NCBI RefSeq assembly: GCF_004010195.1 | Contig: NC_057717.1 | Coordinates: 104,722,937 to 104,786,936, forward strand | Source: Chiloscyllium plagiosum | Lineage: Eukaryota | Reading direction: 5' to 3' | Length of the DNA: 64,000 nucleotides | In this document: positions 30,951 through 58,177 of the stretch, in pieces | How the letters are laid out: every line of letters begins with the position of its first letter | Position numbering within the stretch: the first letter of the stretch is position 1 | Position numbers and translations under genes: made by a program | Notes under the pieces: generated by a model | Seen by the model: the letters and a program-made list of their open reading frames with translations, nothing else | Database searches by the model: none | Told to the model about the DNA's origin: nothing

Positions 30951-33036
30951 GAAGTAAATGCAGGTTTTCTGCTATTTGGCATCTTCTACTTTGGAGAGCT
31001 GCTTGTAGCATATTAAACCAGTTTATTAACTTGTTTAGCTTATGGTTTGATCTCTAGCTTGGAAGCTGTTCTGTATGTTAAGAATTGTTTTCTTCAAGAT
31101 AACCAATTCTAAATTTCCAGTTAGATTTAATTTCAGATATGGACTTTCTGGAAATATGAAGGCTTGTCTTCTGAATGTGATTATTTATTTTCCTTGCTTA
31201 AAAGGTTTTTTATTTTGCAGTAGCAGCAAAGCTGCTGTTCTTTGCTGCTATTCTGAAGGGCTTTCCTGTGCATTGTGGCTAAAATGGAAGATTCCCACCT
31301 TCTCGTAAAATGGACTTCTACTTTCTTGTGGCTTGACTGGATAAATACTACTATTCATAGCCTTAATAAATTAATTCCTGTTTCCTTAATGGCTTTGCTG
31401 AATGAATTCTGCTTCCTGTGGCATTCATAAGTGATGCCGACTTTAGCTTCTGCTAGTTGAAGCTTTAAGAGATGAAACTTGCTTCTTTAATAGTTTTTTT
31501 CTGGATGATTCCTGCTTTTTGCATGTTCAATACTGATTCCCATTTTTTTCTGGTTGGTTTTGCTCCCCACAGTTTAAATAGATGTTTCCTGCTTTCAAAA
31601 TGTTTTAATTAAAGGATTGTCTACCTTTTCTGTAATCTTAATAAAGTCTCCTATCTTTATTCTTTCATTAGGCCAGGGATGCTTAGGTTTCTAATCTGTC
31701 CCTTTGTTATTTTAATTTTGGCTTTGTGATGTTGCCAGGTTTGCAGTATCAGTTTAAACTGCTTTTGTGGCCCTTGATTTCCTTCACCACAGCCATGCCT
31801 TGGAGCATCCACTTGCTATCGCAGTGGCGCTCGATCAATGTAACATTTCCTTACATTTGGCTTTTCTGAACTACAAGACTCACTGTTTTTAGAAGCTTAC
31901 TGTTGTCCACCAGATTTTAACTTTACTCAAAGAGCCTCTGATGTCCATTCATTCTTCAGCTGAAACCTGATTCAAGACTGCTCCTATAAACAACTGCCAT
32001 GCTACTCACTCTCTATCTACTTTTGGAGTAATTGATCCTCCTTCTCTATGAAGTGCCTAACACTCCTGCTGAAGACTCTCTCTTACCAGAAATATCAAAA
32101 TATTTTTACCATTAGTATGGATTCTTCCTTGCTGAATTTAACCACGATTCTTCTGTAAGGTTCTAAAATGTTCAGCTCTTTCCTCCTGCTCACTTTCTGC
32201 GTGAGGAGGTGACTTAAAGTAGAACCTGAAGATGCTGAAAATTTCAGACTCCACTACTGCCAGCATGTTGTATACACAGCTAATCCAAGATTGCATGTCA
32301 ACACATTGAAGAGTAGTTGCCACCATCCTCTTTGTGTGTAGGGATCTACAAGGTCTCCTTGCGTGAGCATGGTAGACGAAAAACACTTCCAGTCTAACCA
32401 GAAGAGGCTCTTATATTGAACAAGTAGCAAAATTGTTACATTGATGTGATAGACTAATTCCAGACACAATGAGAAGGCTCTTAATGATAAGATCTTAAAG
32501 GCCTAAGGTGTTGCTCTTACAAGTCTACTTGACATCATCATAATGGATGATGCCAATGGCACTCCTCAGTATTAACTGTTTTCAGAGTCATATGTAACTA
32601 AAGGGAAATCAGGTTGGGTTGGGAAGGTACTCAAGTGATTGGGACTCATATGGTCAGAAAGAGCAGTTGAGACAGTTCAGGGCGGCAGTTGTGAAGTTTG
32701 AGTGGGAAGACGGGTCAGAGCTGAAAGGGAGTTAGACTAGCATTTTTCTGACTAACATTTCCTGGATAACTATTCAGGCAGGTACCGCACAGCAAAGTTT
32801 CTGACTCAGAGTCGACACTATTATGGAGGGCCCCAGAGAATGGAAGAATTGCCTCTTGGATGTTCAAACTTCCTGGGCATTCCATAGAGATAAGCAAACC
32901 AGTACTACTGCAAGTTGTAGAGGTTTGTGTTCAGTCTCTGATGGTCCAAAGACTGGATTCTATAAATATCCAACATTTTATTTCTTCTTTTATTAAACAA
33001 TGGGCTGTCAAGAAACAGGATGCATTCAAGACTTAC

Positions 33037-33187
33037 CAGAAAGGAACAGAGGAAAATAAAGGAGACAAAGTAGAAATAGGCAATCTCATTGCCACACTCA
33101 TTTCCACTGATGCCAGATCGTTGATCACAAGGTTTGCCGCCCAAGCATGATAACATGATACTATGCCACGCTTCCCCTGTTGCACTC
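33037..33187 (-). CDS. CACNA1A: Cav2.1 exon 35 equivalent: domain IV pore (TGEAW) and IVS6
   Basis: 151 nt, tgtatttcag|G AGT...CTG|gtaagt. Encodes [50 protein letters not shown] with the selectivity-filter Glu intact. Confidence 0.97.
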
Positions 33188-36890: not shown

Positions 36891-37974
36891 TGCATTTTAA
36901 GTACCTAATTTCTTTTAGCTTATCTCATTACTCTAGCCCATATCTGGGTTCTAGTTCATCCCTATAGATGAACTCGTCACTGTTGGCTTGCTCTTTGTTC
37001 CTGATCAGCCATCTTGGTAGATAAGCCCATCCTGATAGACTAGCCCATCTGTACTGTCTCGACCGAACATATTAAAGGCCTTAATGACTGTTCATCATCA
37101 TTGGAAGCAGGAGATGAGAAACTAGGAGTCTGTTTAGTGCAAAGTTTCATGTCTGCTTCAGTAGCTGTGCAATGCCTATTTCATTTGGAAAAAAGGAGTT
37201 CAAGTAAGTCTGATTTGTTCAGCTATATATATATATATCTCCATGTAGCCACTTGATGAAGCAGTGCATTGTATGTCAGTCCACAGTTACTTCTACAAAA
37301 TTAGGTAGACCTGCTCAATGTTACTTTTTGGTTACTCAAAATCACCAAAAGTAGCTGCTCAACATGGTTTTGGTTTTGGCACAATTTCTTTAATCCATTT
37401 TTATTTATTCATAATCATTTGCTTGCAGTTTATCCTATGATACAAGGAGATGTAACATCTCAGAGGAACCTACTGAAAATATGAAAACTCTAAATAAGTT
37501 ATTCTAAGTCAAACATCATTCTTAATTTTTTTTATTTCTAAATATGTTAGCCTGTAGGGCATACTGGATGGGTAATTGAATTAATGCTATATATGTTGAT
37601 GATGCAGCCCTCCAACCCCTCCACTTAACTCTTCCTAAGATAAATGCATTTTGCTCTGTTAAACTGAATTCAGTTTTGCAAATGTATAAATTAGGAACAG
37701 ATAGCGGCTAGTAGGCTCCTAAAATCCGGTCTGCCATTCAATAAGGACATGGCTGATCTGAATGTGTCCTCAACTCTACATTCCTGTCAACTCCTGGACT
37801 TTTCTTACATCTAACGTGCCATTTTCTTCAGCTCACTGTCATAAATCTCATTCCTAGAAATTGCTGTATAATGGTACATAAAACTCAAAAGCGATAGAAC
37901 AATTAATTAACGTTTTGGTCAGAATTCTTTGGTGTATTTTATTAGAAACATTCAAGAAATACTGAAGCAAAGTA

Positions 37975-39985
37975 TTTATTATCAAATGCCTTGCTAAAAT
38001 CCATGTACACCACATCCACTGCTCTGCCTTCATCAACATGTTTTGTCACATCCTCAAATAATTTAATAAGGTTTGTTAGGCATGACCTGCCCCTCATAAA
38101 ACCATACTGACTAACTCTAATCAAATTATGGTTTTCCAAGTAATCAAAAATCTGTCTCTCAGAATCCTCTCCAATACTTTGCATATCACAGCCGTAAGAC
38201 TGATTGGTCTGTAATTCCCAAGATTATCCCTATTCCCTTTCTTGAACAAGTGAATAACATTTACCACCTTCCAATCACCTGGCACTACTCCAGTGGACAG
38301 TGAGGATGCAAAGCTGCTGCACCTTTGGTGATGAATCTCTTCCCTCACTTCCTGTAGTAACCTCGGGTATATCCCATTTGGCCAAGGGGGATTTATCTAT
38401 CCTTATGTTTTCAAAATTTTCAATACATCCTCCTTCCTAACACCAACCTGTTCTAGCATATCAGTCTGTTTCATGCTGTCCTCACAAACAACAAGGTCCC
38501 TCTCACTAGTGAATACTGAAGCAAAGTATTCATTAAGGTCCTCCCCTACTTCCTCCATGTGCAAGTTCCCTCCACTATCCCTGATTGGCCCTACCCTCAT
38601 TCTGGCCATCCTCTTGTTCCTCACATAAGTGTAGAATGCCTTAGGGTTTTCCTTAATCCTACTTGCTAAAGATTTTTTATGTCCGCTTCTAGCTCTCCTA
38701 AGTCCATTCTTCAGTTCCTTCCTGGCTACCTTGTAACCCTCTGAAGCCCTGTCTGATCCTTGCCTCCTTAACCTTAAGTCAGCTTCCTTCTCCCTATTGA
38801 CTAGATGTTCCACATCGCTTGTCACCCAAGATTCTTTCAACCTACCTCCCTTCCTTGCCTCAGTGGGACAAACCTATCCAGCACTATCAGCAGATGCTTT
38901 CTAAACAACCTCCACATTTCTGTTGTACATTTCTCTGAGAACATCTGTTCCCAATCTAGGCGCCCAAGTTCTTGCCTAATAGTATTCCAATTCCCTCTCC
39001 CCCAATTAAATACTTTCCCATATCTTCTGCCCCTATCCCTCTCCATGAGTATAGTAATGGTCAGGGGGTTATGATCACTATCACCGAAATGATCTCCCAC
39101 CGAGAGATCTGACACCTGGCATGGTTTGTTGTCAAGCACCAAATCCAATATAGCCACCCGTTTACTCAACCTATCTACATATTGCATCAGGAACTCTTCC
39201 TGGACACACCTGACAAAAAACTGATCCATTCAAACTACTTGAACTAAGGATGTTCTAATCAATATTAGGGAAGTTATAGTTACCCATGACAACAGCCCTG
39301 TTACTTCTGCACATTTCCAAAATCTGCCTCCCAGTCTGCTCCTGCATGTCTCTGTTGCTACTGGGGGGATCTGTAGAAACCTCCCAATAAAGTGACTGCT
39401 CCTTTCCTGTTTCTGACTTCCACCCATACTGACTCTGTAGACAAACCCTACTCGACAATCTCCCTTTCTGCAGCTGTGACTAGCAATGCCATTCCTTTAC
39501 CTCTTTTACCTTCCACACATTCCTTTTGAAACATCTAAACCCTGGAACATCCAACAACCATTCCTGCATCTGTGATATCCAAGTCTCCATAATAACCACA
39601 ACATCAGAGTTCCAAGTACTCTTCCATGCTCTGAGTTTGTCACCCTTATTCTTGATACTTCTTGCATTAAAATAGACATACTTAAACCCAACACACTGAC
39701 TGCATCTTTTCTGTATTAAGTGCCTATCCCACCTCACAGACTCTCTGCACACTGTATCGGGCTGTTCACTACTTACTCTATCATCTGAGTTGTAGCTCAG
39801 GTTCCCACTCCTGTGCCAATCTAGTTTAAACCCTCCTGAAGAGCTCTAGCAAACCTCCCCCCCAAGATATTGGTGCTCCTCCAGTTTAGGTGCAACCTGT
39901 CCTTCTTGTACATGTCCCACCTTCCCCAGAAGGTATCCCAATGATCCACATATCTGAAGCCCTCCCTCCTACACCAGCCCTGCTG
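37975..39985 (-). mobile_element. CR1 LINE: ORF1 esterase end, APE endonuclease, RT N-terminal part
   Basis: YFNARSI...METW, VMGNYNFP, ILDLVL...GDSDH, KKGNRDNLGNYRPISLT, YMDFSKAFD. Confidence 0.92.
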
Positions 39986-39989
39986 CTTA

Positions 39990-42900
39990 AAGTAGTTGGC
40001 ACCTTGGCAGATGCTTATTCCCCAGTTTGTACATTCTATGGTGAATGATTCACATGTTGCATTTGTTTAGGAAGGCTTTCAGGGTATTCTTGTAGCAATC
40101 CCTGACCATTGCAGAGTCAGAGTGGAGCACTTGATTAGGGAGTCTTGTGTTGGGCATATGGACAATGTGGCTTGGCCATTGCAGCAGGTTGTGTGTGACC
40201 AGTGTCTTGATACTGGGGATATTGGCCTAGGGGAGGATACTTATGCTAGTCCACCTATTTTGCCAGTGGATTTACAGGAATTCACAAAAGCAGCACTGGG
40301 GATACCTCTCGAGGGATTTGAGGGTCTGCTGTACATAGTTCATGTTTTTGGAAGGTCGGCAGCACAGCTGATCAGCAGACCATGAGCTTGATACTAAGGT
40401 TTCAAGTCTTTGTTTCTCAGGTGCCCAAAGGATACACTCACATTGGAGCCAATGTTGCATTTCATTGTCAATGTCTGCTCACACTGATAGGAGGCTCCTG
40501 AGGTTTGGAAAATGATCCACATTGTCCAAAGGCTCACCGTGGAATTTTATAGCCTGGGGTGGTGTTGTGTGGCAGAAATAGTTTGGGAATGCACCTTTCT
40601 TTTCCGGATCTGAGGCCAATTTCTTCATATGTTTCAGTAAAAGTTTCAACAATGGCTTGTAGCTCAGCCTCTGAGTGTGTGCACACGTAGGCATCATCTG
40701 TGTACTGCAGCTCGATGATGTGTTGGGATTCTGGCCTGTAGGGTGTTGAAGATTGAACAGCTTCCCAACCTCTCTGTGGGTTAGCTCCACTGCACATGGA
40801 GCTTCATGAAGGTGTGGTGCAGTGCCTCAGTATTGAGGAAGATGGAGAACAGCAGTGGTGCAATGACAGAGCAACTGCTTGACCCCAGTCTATTGTGTCT
40901 GTGGTGGATCCACTGGTGAGGATCACAGTTTGCATTTCATTGTGAAGCAGGTGGAGAATGGTGAACAATTTCTGTAGGCAGCTGAATTTAAGGAGGATAT
41001 TCCATAATCCCTCACAATTGACAGAATTGAAAGCCTTTGTGAGGTCAAAGGCCATGTAGTAGAAGTTGGTCCTGTTCTCTGAATATGTCTTGATTTGTCA
41101 CACATTGTAAATCTTGATGGATGTGCCTCCTCACAGGCAGAGCCATGTTGAGACTCAATAAGGAGCTTTTAAGACATTGGGAGGAGGTGGTTGAGGAGCA
41201 TTCTCACAATGACTGTTCTCATGATAGACAAAGTCAGAAGTCACATGTCACCAGAGTATAATCCAACAAGTATACTTGAAATCACAAACTTTAGGAGCAT
41301 TGCTCCTTTCTTAAATGAAGAGTCCATCAGAAGAAGGAGCAGTGTTTGAAACCTTGTGATTTCAAATAAACCTGTTGGACTATAACCTGGTGTTATATGA
41401 CTTTATCCACCAGGTCAACACCGGCATCTCCACATCATGGTTTTCTCATGGTGGACATTAGGGAAATCCCTCTGTAATTTTCACAGTCAGACCTATCTCC
41501 TTTCTTGAAGGCAGTCCCAATTACACAACTGTTTCCTTCCAGTCAAGGGGGATGAAGTTGTGGATTCATGTCAAGAGTGCCTGTCTGCCGTATTTTAGTA
41601 CTTCAGCAGGGAATCCAGAGGCCTTGTTGTTTCTCAATTGTTGGGTGGTTTCTTTAACCTCACAGTGGGTTGGAGGTGCACGGAGCTGGTGATGGGCAGT
41701 GTGCTATGGGATGAGGTTGAAAACACTTGTACTGAAGGCTCATTTAGGTTGAGGGGTCCTCAAAGTGGTGTCAAATAGGCATTGATGAAGAACTCCCTGT
41801 TTTTGGCTCTTTCCAGAGTAGGTCTCTGGATACTCAGACCATCAATGGCTTTGATTGTGCTGAAGAAGCCACACACATATCATGGTTGTCATTGAGTTGC
41901 TGAGTCGCATTTGCTCTTTCCACCACCATCTATTCTCTAGGTCACCCTTGTTTGTTGCATCTCGGCGTTCAATTGCCTGTAGGCTTGTTTCCTCTTGGTC
42001 CAGTTTTGGTGGAGCTACCATTTCAGGAATGCCTTTCATGTGTGATCTAGGAGATCCTGGATTACCTGATTGTTCTCGTGGAACCAGTCTTGGTGCTTCC
42101 TGGTCAAGGGGCCAAGCATCTCTATGAAGGTGTTGACTATGACAGCTTTTAGGGTGGACCAGGCACTATGAGCACTCTGAGGCTCAATGTTGGTCATTGC
42201 TAGATTAGCTGTGAGGCACTGCTTGAGTACGTCTTTTCTCGCAGGGTCTTTTAATCTAACATTGAGTCTCCTGTGGCACAGATTTGACTTCCACTCTCAG
42301 GCTAGGTTGATGGAAATGGTAGATTCGAATAGTTGCTGATTGGTCCAGCAGTTGTCAACTCTGCTGGTGACACAGACCATTGCAATTCCTTGCTTGAATG
42401 ATGATGTCGTTTATTAGGTGTTAATGTTTGGAACAGGAATGTTGCCATGATATCTTCTGCTTGTCCTTCTGGTGGAACAGAATGTTTGTTATGATGAGGT
42501 TACGTTTTAGGCATTTGGCCAGGATGTGGACTCTGTTGGAGCTTGTTTTTCTTACAACTATCTTGCCAAAAATGCCTTTCCAAAGGTTTGTGTCCCTCCC
42601 GACTCTTACATTGAAGGTGCTCAGGAGAATCAACTTGTCTCCCTTCGTCATGCAAGATAGTAATTGGTCAAAGATGGTGTGGAATGCCTTTTGTGCCTCG
42701 TCCATTGCATCTAGGGCCAGGATTAGGCACAGATGACTGTGACATATTGCTTTTCACTGATCACAGTGAGCCATAGGGTCACGAGACGTTCATGTACCCC
42801 ACAGGGAAATTCAGTGAAGCATGTGACCATTTTAATTCTTATGATGAAGCTGATCTCATAGAGATGGTGTTCTTCTTCTGGGGGGGTTTGCTATTCTCGA

Positions 42901-43230
42901 AGAAGGTGTAACCATCTCCTTGTTCCTTAAGCTGGTCTTCTCCTGTTAGTCACGTCTCGTCCAGGCCAACGATACCAATATAGCAGTGCCAGAGTTCCTG
43001 AGCTATGTTAGCAGTGCGATGTTTAGGTTGGGGTTGTCCATAAGGGTCCTGACATTGCAAGTCCTAAACTTCATTTGGGTGGGGTTGGTGAAAGGAGGTG
43101 AAAGAAGATGATTCTTTCAATGTGGGGTGGTTGTTACTGACCAATAACCACAATCCAAGCAGAGTGTGGTCTTAACAGAATGGCAGGGAAAATCTGCAAT
43201 GACTGGAGACCTGGCTCTGCAATAAGGTGA
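39990..43230 (-). mobile_element. RTE-clade (RTE-1/BovB-like) LINE, decayed, near full ORF
   Basis: CNVRTLMD APE start, GDKLILLSTFNVRVGRD, FDLTKAFNSV, IIELQYTDD, GEPLDNVDHFPNL. Confidence 0.82.
41231..41442. mobile_element. Penelope-derived fold-back element, family 3, nested in the RTE
   Basis: Inverted arms (ttgaaatcacaaac...ggagcattgctcct / gaaggagcagtgtttgaaaccttgtgatttcaa). Degenerate TSD ttctcatgatagaca / ttctcatggtggaca. Confidence 0.7.
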
Positions 43231-45439: not shown

Positions 45440-45873
<434 letters not shown>

Positions 45874-47548
45874 CTACAAAAGTGAGATCAATGAACAAAT
45901 AGGATAGTTAAAGATGAACGCCTGCTCCTTTCTTCGTTGCATTTGACAAAAATGGCACTTAAAAAGATTCCCAAAAAACAAGTCTGGCCATCATCCAATC
46001 ATGGAAGAGAATGGGTTTATTTGTCAAAATATATATAAACTATATGTATATATATTTATAACACAACCAAATGCACTGTTCTTGGACACTAGCAAGCCAT
46101 AATGCGGAGTCTACTTGCACGTAAATGCATGACATATTCAGAGTTTGCGAATATGCACAGTTACAGAACACTCTGCAGAGATGAAACAATTCCTTTTAAA
46201 ATGATGATTTACATGTGTAGACTCCATTAAGCATGCACAGGCACCAACTGCAAAAAGCAAAAAATGTAGTTGTAGTCCTTGGTAAGAACTGTGGGACAAT
46301 AATTGTAGCTCTTGAAACACATGCAGCAAATGTACATTTCATTAGTGCAAGAGCTTGACTTCATCAATGGTATGAAACCAGTTATCAAATACCCACAGAA
46401 TGACAAAGTCAAACAAAAGATGGGAACACGTAAAATATATATGATCAAAATAAAGCCTTCAATCTTTGTTTACATGTCTTTCTTTTTGTGTTTTTTAAAA
46501 TTTTGGTCTTACCTAGGATCGTGAATATGTTATTACCTGGCCATTATACTGTTTCTTTGTGGAGATTGTCTCGTCAAACCCTTTAGCAAACAGTAAAGAA
46601 AGGAAAAAGCAGCGAGACTACAATTCTTGGGCAGAAACACTCTCGTGGTCTGGTCAACAGGATATATAGTGTTAAAGGATGATGCAATAACTTATTGGCC
46701 AGGACCCACTCCACTGTTGTGACAGAGTTTGTAACCAAGGAAAGGATTTCACACTGGGCAGATGATAACATCATTTAGTATGGATTTCTTATGAGAGAGA
46801 TCTTCAACATCATTATGGATCAGATTCAACTCAAGTCTTAAAAGATTAAAATATTAATCAATTACTCAAGTTACCCATTGTACCTGTGAAATTTTGTGGT
46901 GCATTTTCAGTACCCACGGCCAAGTCCTTTTGGTTATAATGTAAGTCTATTGCTTTTCGTGACCTGATTATTGAAAGAAGGACTTGGTGATAGGGGAGAT
47001 GGCATTGACATTGAAAGGTAAGTTTGAGAGATGAAAAGTGGATTTAGAAAGGAGGAGCTGACATTTGAGAATCGAAAACGTGATTGAGAAGCATCCTATA
47101 GAGCATGATGATCCCTGAAGGACTACAACCACGTTGTTGAGTAAAATATTTTAAAAAGGTATTTAATGGATGATATAAAAATATATATTCTGGAGCTTTA
47201 TTGATTGTTTTTGAGGACAAAGTGAAATGTTGCTGAAACTTCCTCTGTAAATTTAATAAGCTTTAATGAGACTTCACTATGCAGAAGATAAAACAAAAAA
47301 GCCACAACCTTGTTGCACTAAATGAACTTTTCATCATTACTAAGTAAATAATTAAGGGAGCAAATTTTTGAGGTTTTGCAAGGGGAGCATTGAGGTAAAT
47401 GAAGAGGAGGCTGGAGGGCACAACAAAATCCGAAGCCATGCCAAAAATCACAGAGCAAGAACGCAACAGCAATTCGCAATTCAGTGCTATACATGCAAAG
47501 GGTACTTAGTTTGTGTATGCATTAGGCTCAAAAAAATTACAAACCAAC

Positions 47549-47554
47549 CGTGGT
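47549..47554 (-). CDS. CACNA1A: Candidate 6-nt microexon ACCACG (Thr-Thr) in the IVS3-S4 linker (e31a-like)
   Basis: ctacatatag|ACCACG|gttggt, phase 0/0. About 240 nt upstream without AG, 7 upstream YCAY motifs, and TGCATG about 50 nt downstream. Confidence 0.6.
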
Positions 47555-47975
47555 CTATATGTAGATGTTGTTGATGGATGATTGTAATTGGATTGCATTG
47601 GGATTGAATTGCAACCAGTTTTAAAATTAGTTGGCATGGACACACAGACGGATACATGGATGGACACATGAATTTCATAGTGCATTTTGATTGGATGAAT
47701 TATTTCAGAAGGCGTTGTGCCAAAAAAGCACAGATTAAAGACAGCATGTGAAAAGACAAAACAAGAAATACATCAATCATTATTGGCAGTATTTTTTCTT
47801 TTAACGGCAATGATCTATGTCAAAATACAATAGTGATAGACTGGTTCAGCCAGGAATGGTGCACTCTAGCTGTACATTCCAATCAGGAAAGTGCAATGAA
47901 TATATAAGTGAATATACACAACTTATGGTTTGCACCTTGCTTCTTTGTTTTTGCATTTTTCATCACTATTTTCAC

Positions 47976-47981
47976 CGGATG
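47976..47981 (-). CDS. CACNA1A: Candidate 6-nt microexon CATCCG (His-Pro) in the IVS3-S4 linker
   Basis: ttacattgcaag|CATCCG|gtgaaa, phase 0/0. One base from the mammalian Cav2.1 Asn-Pro microexon (AATCCG), with UGC just upstream of the acceptor. Confidence 0.5.
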
Positions 47982-50959
47982 CTTGCAATGTAATTATACA
48001 AAAATTGCCCATTTGTAGTGATGTTAAAGATTTTCTTAATTCTCGTTATAATTTGGATTAGAAAAATGGGCTGGATTTTACAAGGAGTAGCAATCTCACA
48101 CAGAATGCCACTCCACCTTTTCTTTTTTAATGAACAGAAGACTCCAATTAGGGCTTCTTCAGAAACCTGGAGCTGTAATTCCATTCTGACGGTTCTGTTA
48201 CAGTGCAGAAATACTGGGGAAAGGCAAACTATATCCTCTTTTCATAGCAGTCAGCTATCATACTCTGAAATGTAAAGGTCCAGAATCACAAGCAATCACT
48301 TTGACAGCTGCTGTCAAATCCTAAATACGTAATGCAAGTGTCAGATTAGGGTCCTAGGAGGGTAGGGTGCTAAATGGATCAAGCTGCTAGGGTGTTAGGT
48401 AGGGATAGGATGCAAGGTCGGTAGGAGGTATGATTTTGGGGGCAGGATGCAATGCATGTAGAATGCCAACTCGGCTGGGATTGGAGTGCCAGGTGGGATA
48501 CAGGCAGGTGGGTAAGGGGTAGATTATCAGGAGGGTAGCATGCCGAATTAATGGGGTGCCAGGGTGCAAGGTAGAAAGGTAGCCAGGCAGGTGATGTAAT
48601 GTTTGGGGTAGGTTGATGTGGGTTGGAGAGGGAGGGGGAGAGTGGATGTCAGTCTGGCAGCAGGGGACCTGAACGGGAAGAGGTTGGTAGCAGATTGGGT
48701 CTGGAGCGGGTCCAGAGTGGAGGAAAGGGCCATTGGGTCCATGTGGGATGCAAAAGGTGTCAGGTTGTGTGGACAGGGGAGAGAGGGCAGTGTTAGGTCC
48801 GAGTCTGAGGTCAGTGCCTGGGGTAGATGTAGGTTTTTTTTATTATTCATTCATGAGATGAGAGCATCGCTGGCTAGGCCAGAATTTATTGTCCATTCCT
48901 AAATTAAATGTTGGTGATATATGTGCTAAGTACAGGGTCAGTTGAATACTTACTCAGTAATTAGACTATCTATTTTATAGTCTAACTTTTTCTGAATAAC
49001 TACTATATTCTATGGACCCCTCTGAAATTTCTGATTTAAATGGAGATTTTCAGAGGGTTCCAAGTACAGGGGTATTGCATGGCAGTACTTTAAATTTCCT
49101 GAACAATTTTTCAGAGTCTGCTACAATGGGGATTCCACAGGGTCCTCATTTTCAACTCCCGTATATGCTGGAATAACAACTGTTTGGCCATCAAAAAGTC
49201 CCAGGCCAGTAGGTAAGCAAATTTCAACTTAAAGGAGTGAAACAAAAAGGGCTCAAAAATGATGTTAAGAGGGTACTGGCAACATTTCAAGGGAGGTGAT
49301 TGTTTTGGAGGTCCAGCATACTACAGATAGTACTCTGATAATATAGAGATCGTTAATAAACATTTGGTTTAGGTCCTAACACCCACTATTATAGCAAACT
49401 AATTCCCGTTGTAGTTCCTGGTTTCTGCACAACACTCAAGTGGTTGAACCAATCTTTCACTATTCAACAACAAGCAGGCATCCAGCAAAATGTCCAAATT
49501 GGATTTTTTCCATCCACCACTTTTATGTGCAGAACAGTAATAATTGAACAGAAGTTTGGCAAACACCCTCTTTGTATCTACAAACCAAAGATAAAAACAC
49601 CACAAGGCTATTTAAACACAATCTCATTCTTAGACAATTATTATATGGTTCTTCACTCTCCCAAATATTTTTCCATTAAAGCACTAACTCTTTATGTTTA
49701 AGTCTTTCACCTGTAAGCTATAAGAATACTTATGATGGAAAGAAAATGAGAATATCTAAAGTGTTTTGATCTAGAACAGTACATAACAGCGCTCTGTTTC
49801 TGCCATTCTCCTATGTTAAACAGAACCAGGCAAGTTTACTTCTTCCTCTTATAAAATACATTATTTTTCAAAGTTCGATATGTTAAATAATGTCTGTGGA
49901 ATCAATAATTAGCTTTAGGAATGCTTGGAAAAAAGCATGCATCAATTGAAAGAGATCAATTGTACTTTTCTTAGATAATAAAAAATACTAGTCCATGTGA
50001 TCTAGTGACATTTGATCTTGAAACAGTACCAACAGAAAGAAAGCGAAGCTATTGACATTAAGTTGCTAGACATAAAGGACAGCTGCAGGCATGAATGAAA
50101 ACTACAAGAAGAAGAGTTGGAAGGTTAAGATGACCAGCACACAGATGCTGGCAAAAAAGAACACAGAGACACAACACCAAGCAGAATGGAGATTTCTTCT
50201 GTGGAGATGTAGTAAATCACTCACAGGAAAACATTTGGCTTAGCAGAAAAGGAGGCAGAAGTTCTTCTCAAGTGAGCTAAAGAGTTCTAAATCATGAAAA
50301 GCTGCGTAAATAATCTGGTGATACCTATTTCTCTCAGAGGTGGGCAAACCGTGAACCACATAATCAGCTGTGCAATACATTGCATTGTATAGCCACATTT
50401 CATTTCCATTGCTCACACCAGCATACCACAGCGTTTTTCTCAGGAAATGTTTTGCCAATTTGTTCTGATTGGTTTGTGCTGGACTGTCATAATAAAGAGA
50501 AAAAAAACCTGAATGATCTACATTCAAAACTGTGAAGGATAAAGTTGGATTTAATTGTACGGTTCTGTGCATTTCTATCTGGTCTCTGACCACATTTCAA
50601 TCCCTTTAAATGAAACAGCTACAAAAACTTGCTGGGTGCATCCTTTCCTATACCAAGTCCTGTACATCCATCATTTCTATCAGTGCTAACCTGAATAAAG
50701 CCTTAGTCCTCTAATGCCTCCAACTCAAGATACTTGATTTTGTGTTTAATTTCTTCTGTGGTCTCTCTTCTCCCTGTATCTCCTCTATTGCAACGCCAAC
50801 TCATCAAATTTTGTGGTTTTAATTCTGGTCTCTAGCTCATTCCCATTGTCCTTTTGCCTACCACCCCTTGCCTTACAGTACCTCAATTCTACATTCTGTG
50901 ACTTTCTTCGTAAAATATGGAATTGATTGCAAAGAATTATCAATTTTATCCTGCATCAC

Positions 50960-53302: not shown

Positions 53303-53386
53303 CCAAAATTCTGTCACTAATATATCAGTGACACTGCCCAGGACCGTGACAAAATCAAATACATTCCAAGCATCCTGAAAATAGTT
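53303..53386 (-). CDS. CACNA1A: Cav2.1 exon 31 equivalent: IVS3
   Basis: 84 nt, tttgctttccag|AAC...TGG|gtaagt. Encodes [28 protein letters not shown]. Confidence 0.96.
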
Positions 53387-53544: not shown

Positions 53545-54015
53545 CACAATCATAGTCATAGAGCTGTACAGCACAGAAACAGACCCTTCAGTCCAACTCG
53601 TTCATGCTGACCAGATATCCTAAACTAATCTAGTCCCATTTGTCAGCATTTGGCCCATATCCTTCTAAACCCTTCCTATGCATATACCCATCCAAATGCC
53701 TTTTAAATGATGTAATTGTACTAGCATCCACCACTTTCTCTGGCAGCTCATTCCATACACCACCCTCTGCATGAAACGTTGCCCCTTAGGTCCTTTTAAA
53801 TTTTTCTCCTCTCACCCTAAACCTATGTCCTGTGGTTCTGGACTCCCCCAACCTAGGGAAAGGACCTTATTCATATCCCTCATGATTTTATAAACCTTTA
53901 CAAGATCACCCCTCAGCCTCCAATGCTCCAAGGAAAACAGCCCGAGCCTATTCAGCCTCACTCAAATCCTCCAAAGCCTGGCAACATCCTTGTAAATCTT
54001 TTCTGAACTCTCCCA
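53545..54015 (-). mobile_element. CR1 3' fragment
   Basis: Reverse complement of CR1 C-terminus and tail, homologous to 34160-34670. Confidence 0.82.
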
Positions 54016-54537
54016 ATTACTGCAAAATTATTGGGACTATAAGTAATTGTAGCAAAGCTAGATTTATCTCCAAGCAGACATCAATAAGCACACTTTACAT
54101 CATAAATCACTGATCAGGAATGACAGTCTTGAATGATTTTTCTCTCCACCTTGATGGCCACTGTTGCTGCAGCCAAATGAAGTACATCAAGTGCTACCTT
54201 GAGTCAACTCACAGGAGGAATGCTACAATGGCTGCAATTTTCTTGAGCTGGGTAGGAATACAAGAAATTAATTGCTTTTCCATTCGCAGTCACTATCCAG
54301 TATTAATAGCTGGAAAGTGCATGCATTTAGACATTGAGGACAAGGTTGTGTCCACACACTTGAAAGTTCTTCTAACACTTATGTCTACTCACATATCAAG
54401 AATAGCCACTTAGTTAAGCAGTGGAAGGTATCCTGCACCTGTGGAACTGTAACCTGCAAGAGTCAATGCTTTCAGAAAGAGAGGGAGCTGGAAAAAATTC
54501 AGGGGAAAAATGTATAATATTAAGCCCATATACTCAC

Positions 54538-54904: not shown

Positions 54905-55339
54905 AATTTACTTATTAACGTTGTGCTTCTACAATATTGGCAATGGAGGCAAGAGAGAAAGATCATTAAGGAACGTTAATTGGAAGACCATGGTATAAGT
55001 GAACTTATTCCATTTTTCAGGTTATCACTGCCGAATCAACTGGTAATTAAAGCATTCACAATAAACATTTACAGCACAAAGGAAGCCATTAAATTCATTG
55101 CGTCAGTACTCATTCTTCACTTGGACAATGAATCCAAGTGACCTGTATCTTTCTGAGTGTTGTATTTTTTTCCAATACGAATATTTATCCACATTGTCTT
55201 AAAAATGCTTTGTATTGTTCTTAAATCTCTACATTATGATAAAACATTTCATGCTCAGGCAATTCTGTAGAAATCAAACACTTTCTGACCTTGCCTCTCA
55301 CATAGTTTTGAACTTTTAATTAGTGACTTCTCAGCAATA

Positions 55340-57195
55340 AAAATAGAACACAGAACATACAACATTACAGTACAGGTCCTTCAGCCCTCAGTGTTGCACC
55401 AACCTGTGAAACCAATCTGAAGCTCATCTAACCTACATTATCAGCCAAATGCTTATCCAATGACCATTTAAATGCCCTTAAAGTTGGCGAGTCTACTACT
55501 TTTGCAGGCAGGGCATTCCATACCCTTACTATTCTCTGAGTAAAGAAACTACCTTTGACATCTGTCCTATATCTATTACCCCTCAATTTAAAGCCCATGT
55601 TGCCTCATGTTAGCCATCACCATCTGAGGAAAAAGGCACTCACTGTCCACCCTCTCTAACCCTTTGATTATCTTGTATGTCTCTATTAAGTCACCTCTTA
55701 TCTTTCTTCTCTCTAATGAAAACAGCCTCAATTCCCTCAGCCTTTCATCATAAGACCTTTCCTCCATAGCAGGCAACATCATGGTAAATCTCCTCTGTAC
55801 CCTTTCCAATGCTTCCATATCCTTCCACTTCAGAGTTGTGTACAGCTACAGCATGACCTGAAGCCTCCAAAACTCAATCCCTCTACCAATAAAACCTAAC
55901 ACACCACACACCTTCTTACCAACCTTATCAACCTGGTAGGCAAATTTCAGGGATCTATACACATGGTAACCAAGATCTCTCTGTTGATCCACACTACCAA
56001 CAATCTTACCATTAGCCCAGTACTCTGTATTCCTGTTACTCCTTCCAAAGTCAATCACCTCACATTTTTCCACATTAAACTCCATCTTGCACCTCTCAGC
56101 CCAGCTTTGCAGCTTATTTATGTCCCTCTATAACCTGCAACATCAGCACTATCCACAACTCCACCGACTTTAGTGTCATCCTCAAATTAACTAATCCATC
56201 CTTCTATACCCTTATCCAGGTCATTTACAAAAATGACAAACCCAAAACAAATCCTTGCGGTACACCACTAGTAACTGAACTCGAGGATGAACATATCCCA
56301 TCAACCACCACCCTTTGTCTTCTTTCAGTTATCCAATTTCTGACCCAAACCGCTAAATCACCCTCAATCCCTTGCCTCTGTATTTTCTGCAATAGCCTAC
56401 TGTNNNNNNNNNNNNNNNNNNNNNNNNNNNNNNNNNNNNNNNNNNNNNNNNNNNNNNNNNNNNNNNNNNNNNNNNNNNNNNNNNNNNNNNNNNNNNNNNN
56501 NNNNNNNNNNNNNNNNNNNNNNNNNNNNNNNNNNNNNNNNNNNNNNNNNNNNNNNNNNNNNNNNNNNNNNNNNNNNNNNNNNNNNNNNNNNNNNNNNNNN
56601 NNNNNNNNNNNNNNNNNNNNNNNNNNNNNNNNNNNNNNNNNNNNNNNNNNNNNNNNNNNNNNNNNNNNNNNNNNNNNNNNNNNNNNNNNNNNNNNNNNNN
56701 NNNNNNNNNNNNNNNNNNNNNNNNNNNNNNNNNNNNNNNNNNNNNNNNNNNNNNNNNNNNNNNNNNNNNNNNNNNNNNNNNNNNNNNNNNNNNNNNNNNN
56801 NNNNNNNNNNNNNNNNNNNNNNNNNNNNNNNNNNNNNNNNNNNNNNNNNNNNNNNNNNNNNNNNNNNNNNNNNNNNNNNNNNNNNNNNNNNNNNNNNNNN
56901 NNNAGGTTTTTGAGGCATGACCTACCCTTCACAAAACCATGTTGTCTATACCTAAATCAACTTATTCCTTTCTAGATGATTATAAATCCTATCTCTTATA
57001 ACTCTTTCCAACACTTTACCCACAACCAAAGTAAGGCTCTCTGGTCTACAATTACCAGCGTTGTCTCGACTCCGCTTCTTGAACAAGGGGACAATATTTG
57101 CTATCCTCCAGTTTTCTGGCACTGTTCCTGTAGATGGTGATTACATAAAGATCAAAGCCAAAGGCTTTACAATCTCCTCCTTAGCTTCCCAGAGA
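55340..57195 (-). mobile_element. CR1 LINE RT region spanning the assembly gap
   Basis: KGRSCLKNL [gap] SRLLQK...RRQRVVVDG...SGVPQG, MEFNVEKCEV, LERVQRRFT. Confidence 0.9.
56404..56903. other. Assembly gap (500 N)
   Basis: Run of N in the sequence. Confidence 1.
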
Positions 57196-57514
57196 TAGTC
57201 TTTTCTTAGAGATATTTCTTTTCTAGTGCAAACAGGGAATTGATTAGCAACCAAGCGAATTCTCTGTATAAAGACATCTCTATTGAACACAGTCCTATTA
57301 ACTACTGGAATCTATAATCTGTAACATTATTTGTAAACCTGTGCAGATCTACTGAGAGGGGAAGATAGAGAAAGTGTGTGTGTGTGTACGTGGGCCTGTG
57401 CTTGTGTGTGAGCAAGTCTGTAAAATGTTGGGAGACCTCATACGGAGAGTCAAAAGTGTGGAGGATGCTCAGTCTTTACCCAAGTTAAAGAGAAAGACAC
57501 AGATAGGCAAAGTG

Positions 57515-57765
57515 ACACAGTCATACAGCTGTACAGCACGGAAACACACCTTTTGGTCAAACTCATCCATATTCAAAATTAATCAAGTCTTGTTTGACAG
57601 CATTTGACCAATATTTCTCTAAACCCTTCCTCTTCATATACCCATCCAGATGTCTTTTAAATGCTGTAATTGTACCAGCTGCTACCACTTTCTCTTGCAG
57701 CTCATTCTGTACATGCATCATTCTCTGCATGAAAAAGTTGCCCCTTAGGTCCCTTTTAAATCCTG
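57515..57765 (-). mobile_element. CR1 3' end fragment
   Basis: FKRDLRGNFFMQR...FKRHLDGYM. Confidence 0.8.
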
Positions 57766-57973
57766 TGGTTCTGGATTTCAAGTCTACTAACATTACCACT
57801 ATGCCACTGCCTCCCCATAGCTGAGAGGGTATAGGGGAGATCAATTACACCCCGTTTAGAGGTGACATTCTTTAGTATTGATAGTTGGTTGGAGAAGTGT
57901 GGCAGTAACACAGCAAGGGGCAATAATGCCAAAACACAAATGGTTAAAAGCTGAATGGAGAGACAGAAAATCA

Positions 57974-58177
<204 letters not shown>

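Follow-up and report, generated by a model that had tools for sequence, protein, structure and literature searches.

In mammals, a cassette exon of six nucleotides (nt), e31a, adds two residues to Cav2 calcium channels, Asn-Pro (NP) in Cav2.1 and Glu-Thr (ET) in Cav2.2, and its inclusion alters gating and the sensitivity to omega-agatoxin IVA. Here we describe what is probably the shark counterpart of this exon, a six-base unit reading ACCACG and encoding Thr-Thr (TT), found in the Cav2.1 gene of Chiloscyllium plagiosum within a stretch of 64,000 nt (contig NC_057717.1, positions 104,722,937 to 104,786,936 of the forward strand), which is called the window throughout this text. The earlier literature places e31a as a cassette in both Cav2.1 and Cav2.2 (PMC5633781, PMC10657410), reports that Nova2 promotes its exclusion in Cacna1b (PMC5633781), and describes the mouse exon as 6 nt long with AG and GT flanks (PMC5008151). 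Another small cassette of these channels, e24a in the linker between segments S3 and S4 of domain III (IIIS3-S4), encodes SSTR in Cav2.1 and SFMG in Cav2.2 and is regulated by Nova (PMC10657410, PMC5633781, PMC11580629). Like the shark candidate, it is a short cassette of an S3-S4 linker that preserves the frame and is shared by Cav2.1 and Cav2.2, each with residues of its own. It differs in its place (domain III, outside the window), in its length of 12 nt and in its response to Nova2, which enhances it and does not repress it. The length of the very linker considered here, IVS3-S4, is also altered by splicing in CaV1 channels and by an alternative exon of Drosophila Cav2 (PMC5279877, PMC10657410), but the exons are others and of other sizes. 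Our literature search retrieved no paper on this microexon in shark CACNA1A and no titles on e31a outside mammals. Thus, the e31a cassette of mammals is known, while what appears to be new is the exon together with an intronic code common to two ancient paralogues.

On its minus strand, the window covers a voltage-gated calcium channel gene from the pore loop of domain III to beyond IVS6; its exons were recognized in stop-to-stop reading frames. Two exons were compared with the solved human chains alpha-1A, alpha-1B and alpha-1E: that of IVS5-S6 (32989-33141) scored 51.8, 33 and 26 bits, and that at 57992-58159 scored 117.5, 99.9 and 100.3 bits, in this order; alpha-1A being the best match of both, the host gene is identified as the Cav2.1 orthologue. 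Exons 31 and 32, to which the human chains also align, are separated by an intron of 7,429 nt, and the six-base unit, tag/ACCACG/gttggt (slashes mark the exon boundaries), is located 5,748 nt past the former and 1,675 nt ahead of the latter. Both exons break on whole codons, so that a 6-nt insert would stay in frame and would add Thr-Thr. A sequence-only reading of this DNA had proposed exactly such a frame-preserving microexon, preceded by about 240 nt devoid of AG and followed at about 50 nt by a TGCATG; all three elements are indeed present, with an AG-free run of 241 nt and a distance of 52 nt. The AG-N6-GT form is by itself at chance level, and the evidence of the window alone would be insufficient; it is the comparison with a paralogue that appears decisive.

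Searches of the same assembly (3.56 Gb) with exons 31 and 32 led to a second Cav2 gene, on contig C30. Its equivalent intron is 10,910 nt long and includes 40 AG-N6-GT units, one of which, tag/CAACGG/gttggttt, follows an AG-free run of 213 nt, the next-longest among the 40 being 136 nt. The two units thus agree in having a hexamer of 6 nt without a stop codon between AG and GT, and their flanks can be compared directly: tcatccatGaacaacatcAacatGtag in the paralogue versus tcatccatCaacaacatcTacatAtag in the window. In a blastn comparison of intron against intron, the only significant match was between positions 47753-47541 of the window and 18716068-18715859 of C30 (58.3 bits, E-value 2.3e-10), with the next-best at 31.1 bits; in 100 dinucleotide shuffles of the C30 intron the best score averaged 30.6 (standard deviation 2.0) and never exceeded 35.4. 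The full local alignment consists of tight sub-blocks with many insertions and deletions (indels) between them. When the whole window was compared with 81.2 kb of the C30 locus, 215 hits were obtained, 12 of which were single-copy on both sides. They comprise nine coding exons and the block around the hexamer, all ten colinear, and two weak matches that are out of order, so that, outside the coding exons, the block is the sole match that is both colinear and single-copy. A 34-place pattern derived from the block (25 fixed bases, up to two mismatches) occurs at exactly two sites in the 3.56-Gb genome, both on the gene strand, while the reversed control yielded none; hence, the block is not a repeat. 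Likewise, a DNA search of the genome with a 351-nt region found only the region itself. Exon 31 of the two genes shares 62 of 84 bases but only 12 of 28 third codon positions, which indicates that the duplication is old. The best explanation is that the unit is older than the separation of Cav2.1 from Cav2.2, and that the two-residue length and the flanking code were kept but not the dipeptide.

On balance, the gene on C30 appears to be Cav2.2, alpha-1B being the best match in two of the three exons tested: the exon ahead of IVS6 (47.7 bits, compared to 34.8 with alpha-1E and 25.1 with alpha-1A) and, with smaller differences, exon 29 (108.4 bits, compared to 106.2 with alpha-1A and 104.4 with alpha-1E). 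Other Cav2-like fragments have been found in the assembly. A Cav2.3-like exon 29 is located on a 2-kb contig (C92261:333-521, locus L028), and a P-loop-like exon that matches alpha-1B slightly best is located on another contig (C11:93960220-93960315, locus L018). Exons 29-33 are absent from the 60 kb upstream of the latter, a stretch that includes 3,154 N. The assembly of the third Cav2 gene seems to be poor.

Apart from the runs across the 500-N gap, the AG-free zone ahead of the hexamer is longer than any other AG-free run of the window on either strand, the next-longest on the gene strand being 177 nt. From the base composition, 8.6 AG dinucleotides would be expected in the 241 nt, and none of 20,000 mononucleotide shuffles was free of AG. 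CT, which is the AG of the opposite strand, occurs 14 times in the zone, therefore the avoidance is strand-specific. In the paralogue, the 213-nt zone is found at the same place, is the longest of its intron, and was AG-free in 23 of 20,000 shuffles; there, too, the avoidance is limited to the gene strand. Three features go with exons that have a distal branch point, and all were found: a long AG-free stretch that ends at the 3' splice site and, where this stretch begins, a word resembling a branch point and a tract of pyrimidines. The word TTGAT of the window is aligned with TTGAT of the paralogue, whose AG-free zone also starts pyrimidine-rich (75% in its first 75 nt), and we place the putative branch point near this word (47771-47776). 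The sequence-only reading had favored ACTAAT, which does occur at the position given for it; however, it was rejected as a branch point because the surrounding stretch is not conserved in the paralogue.

That reading had also pointed to seven YCAY motifs in the 150 nt upstream and to one more in the exon. The counts are correct (the motif in the exon starts at 47553), and four of the upstream motifs keep their positions in the paralogue, at offsets of 27, 23, about 110 and about 143 nt from the exon. By count, the enrichment turned out to be modest, since at least seven YCAY are reached by 4.2% of all 150-nt segments of the gene strand; in the 240 nt upstream there are eight, a number reached by 11.7% of segments. 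A predicted RBFOX-type site, TGCATG, is present downstream in both genes, 77 nt past the hexamer in the paralogue, against a background of about 0.8-1.3 GCATG per kb. In both genes the word AAUCAUCC (47576-47583 in the window) could form a helix of seven pairs with the donor, GGUUGGUU(U) (47541-47549), with the microexon looped out. In RNAalifold this helix is weak (-2.45 kcal/mol) and lacks covariation, because both arms are identical in the paralogue. The neural microexons controlled by nSR100/SRRM4 resemble the candidate in being very short, frame-preserving neural cassettes in a surface loop, but whereas exons of that type have a UGC element near the 3' splice site, the shark unit has no TGC in the last 30 nt ahead of the AG; in both genes, the nearest lies about 40 nt upstream. 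A control other than that by nSR100/SRRM4 is suggested by the YCAY motifs and by the extent of the AG-free zone. The coordinates of all these elements are collected in Table 1.

Table 1. Elements of the candidate microexon and its surroundings in the window (C30, the paralogous gene; slashes mark exon boundaries)
Feature	Position	Strand	Details
Candidate cassette exon ACCACG (Thr-Thr)	47549-47554	minus	Between ..VTEFW and KNIINLSF..; tag/ACCACG/gttggt; aligned place in C30 is CAACGG (Gln-Arg), also 6 nt, in frame
3' splice site AG (47555-47556) with 30-nt kept upstream block	47555-47584	minus	27/30 bases identical to Cav2.2 paralogue; two YCAY (starts 47581, 47577)
5' splice site region G/GTTGGTTT	47541-47549	minus	9/9 bases identical to Cav2.2 paralogue
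AG exclusion zone, 241 nt	47557-47797	minus	Longest AG-free run of the window on either strand, except runs over the 500-N gap
Predicted distal branch-point region	47720-47776	minus	TTGAT(G) 47771-47776, then 51-nt pyrimidine-rich tract 47720-47770; at 5' end of AG-free zone
ACTAAT, branch-point candidate of the sequence-only reading	47626-47631	minus	Present; surrounding stretch not kept in C30
TGCATG, RBFOX-type word	47492-47497	minus	52 nt downstream of exon
Second GCATG	47437-47441	minus	Downstream of exon
Whole block alignable with Cav2.2 intron	47541-47784	minus	Local alignment, 160/266 columns identical
Conserved sub-block	47641-47660	minus	17/20 bases identical to C30
Conserved sub-block	47673-47697	minus	20/25 bases identical to C30
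Exon 31, upstream constitutive, end of IVS3	53303-53386	minus	28 codons, ..VTEFW/gtaagt, ends on whole codon
Exon 32, downstream constitutive, IVS4	45757-45873	minus	39 codons, tag/AAAAAT.., KNIINLSF.., begins on whole codon

We regard the six-base unit as very probably a genuine e31a-type cassette microexon of shark Cav2.1, the shark version of the known, brain-regulated mini-exon, since no stretch of the intron other than the one that holds it is also kept in the Cav2.2 paralogue. Several observations weigh against this identification. The donor GTTGGT is a poor match to the usual donor consensus, the last 40 nt ahead of the AG are only 55% pyrimidine, and the last 25 nt are purine-rich, which is weak with respect to the consensus. 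Units of the AG-N6-GT form are common in the intron (26, of which 24 lack a stop codon), and the YCAY count reaches only the upper 4.2% of segments. There is little conservation of the hexamer itself between the two genes (TT versus Gln-Arg, QR), and the assignment of the second gene to Cav2.2 is not unanimous, since its IVS5-S6 exon scores 48.4 bits with alpha-1A and only 37.1 with alpha-1B.

Some of these observations would also agree with another explanation, namely that the block owes its conservation to a different intronic role and that the AG-6 nt-GT unit never enters the mRNA. The block could then serve as a transcriptional enhancer, control the neighbouring exons from within the intron, act in recursive splicing or encode an RNA of unknown kind. 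A conserved sequence need not be used as an exon, both splice sites here are weak, and within the block the hexamer shows the lowest conservation. On the other hand, the conservation peaks in both genes exactly at an AG and a GT that are 6 nt apart, and neither hexamer contains an in-frame stop codon. AG is avoided on the gene strand alone over 241 and 213 nt, which fits the choice of a 3' splice site and not an enhancer. Introns of 7-11 kb are short for recursive splicing, the human N-type chain is longer by two residues at this very site, and the search of Rfam gave no family at the block, the sole row (E-value 0.56) being located elsewhere, in locus L034. We therefore consider an unspliced conserved element unlikely. 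An ordinary longer coding exon was rejected as well, as the open frame of 88 codons that covers the block is broken in the paralogue by a stop codon and by indels whose lengths shift the frame.

The unit might also be a functionless AG-N6-GT that arose by chance, given the number of such units in the intron and the fact that any long AG-free run has to end at some AG. This is already very unlikely: the conservation between the paralogues is far above that of the shuffled introns, the pattern is found only at the two Cav2 sites in the entire genome, and in each of the two introns no AG-free run is longer than the one at this unit. Finally, there is hardly any chance that the true counterpart of e31a is cattgcaag/CATCCG/gtgaaa (47976-47981, minus strand), whose dipeptide, His-Pro (HP), resembles the mammalian NP, whose AG adjoins a TGC, and whose AG-free run of 51 nt ranks second in length among the 26 units, since one near match among 26 is unremarkable, the conserved block begins about 190 nt downstream (at 47784 at most), and the surroundings of 47976 have no match in the paralogue, for which lack of conservation this candidate was rejected.

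With the interpretation as e31a preferred, the shark unit can be compared with its mammalian relatives. The exon of mammalian CACNA1A occupies the corresponding intron of the orthologous gene, with the IVS3 exon before it and the IVS4 exon after it, has 6 nt and makes a frame-preserving insertion of two residues, but the insertion is Asn-Pro there and would be Thr-Thr in the shark candidate. The sequence-only reading, which had regarded the unit as the shark orthologue of e31a coding for TT instead of NP, is supported by the position and by the homologous AG-6 nt-GT unit in the Cav2.2 paralogue; orthology with the mammalian exon is supported on the same two grounds, the C30 unit being itself a putative e31a. 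The solved human chains differ at the junction of exons 31 and 32: compared with the direct join, the N-type chain is longer by two residues and the R-type chain by three, and the P/Q-type chain has no addition. The e31a of mammalian CACNA1B finds its likeness in the homologous unit of shark Cav2.2, with Glu-Thr in the former and Gln-Arg in the hexamer of the latter, and the upstream YCAY cluster of the shark would fit the repression by Nova (PMC5633781).

We propose the following model of how the exon could be used. A distal branch point with its pyrimidine tract would be located approximately 170-220 nt upstream, and the long AG-free spacer would allow the spliceosome to use a far AG, the first one after the spacer. 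Judging by the RNA map known for NOVA, a protein of this type bound to the YCAY motifs of the spacer would hinder the use of the exon, a proposal that fits the Nova2-promoted exclusion of e31a (PMC5633781). The weak but strictly kept donor G/GTTGGTTT may be aided by an RBFOX-type protein bound to the downstream UGCAUG, and the kept complementarity between AAUCAUCC and the donor might add a structural layer to the switch. Upon inclusion, the extracellular IVS3-S4 linker of the voltage sensor of domain IV would become longer by Thr-Thr.

As to the age of the switch, we lean, with some reserve, towards the view that e31a and its whole control unit, i.e. the distal branch point, the AG-free YCAY spacer of approximately 210-240 nt, the weak donor G/GUUGGUUU and the downstream UGCAUG, were already present in the vertebrate ancestor, when Cav2 was still a single gene. 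They would have been kept in both copies, with the residues (TT, QR, NP, ET) drifting freely under selection for a two-residue length switch and not for particular residues. The differing dipeptides suggest that the length of the linker is what counts.

Searches of other databases were carried out with the flanking exons. None of the 120 proteins listed for exon 32 has the shark KNIIN start, and most of them are genomic read-through open reading frames (ORFs); the search with exon 31 gave just one bullfrog and one sturgeon fragment; and of the 150 representative proteins listed for exon 29, nine reach IVS4, none of them informative on sharks. Two pattern scans of metagenome contigs returned no hits and two hits, respectively, the latter being an identical sequence from two records; as they match only a 29-nt pattern, they are attributed to chance. 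In one protein, P0205 (1,670 amino acids), the junction reads ..VTEIAVSTDNFINLS.., with three residues more than the usual ..VTEIANNFINLS.. of P0195; these extra residues may represent another linker variant or a model error. The last codon of exon 31 (53303-53305, minus strand) is TGG, the Trp of ..VTEFW, and the alignment with human alpha-1A stops at the preceding Phe. VTEFW is also found in a bullfrog genomic ORF (P0121), before the read-through, and the bird fragments have VTEFG.

Apart from the channel exons, the window harbors retroelement-like open frames with reverse-transcriptase motifs and repeats, at 37900-43000, 53550-54020, 55300-57800 and elsewhere, which match several places of the C30 locus and account for most of the 215 blastn hits mentioned above. 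An intronic gap of 500 N (56401-56900) lies between reverse-transcriptase-like open frames. In the intron between exons 31 and 32, a low-complexity open frame of 150 codons, rich in proline, serine and threonine (48379-48850, minus strand), has no match in the C30 intron; within its span lie two AG-free runs, of 177 and 102 nt, which rank second and third in length in the intron of the window.

If transcripts confirm the exon, the two-residue switch in the IVS3-S4 linker of presynaptic calcium channels would be as old as the jawed vertebrates, and older than the split between the genes of the P/Q-type and N-type channels. It would also be a rare case of a 6-nt exon that is recognisable from DNA alone, by means of the paralogous introns of one genome, and the same comparison of paralogous introns could reveal other microexons that have been overlooked by gene annotation. 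The kept flanks provide a short list of candidate control elements, and the pairs TT and QR in the shark, set against NP and ET in mammals, argue for the importance of the length of the linker over the identity of its residues.

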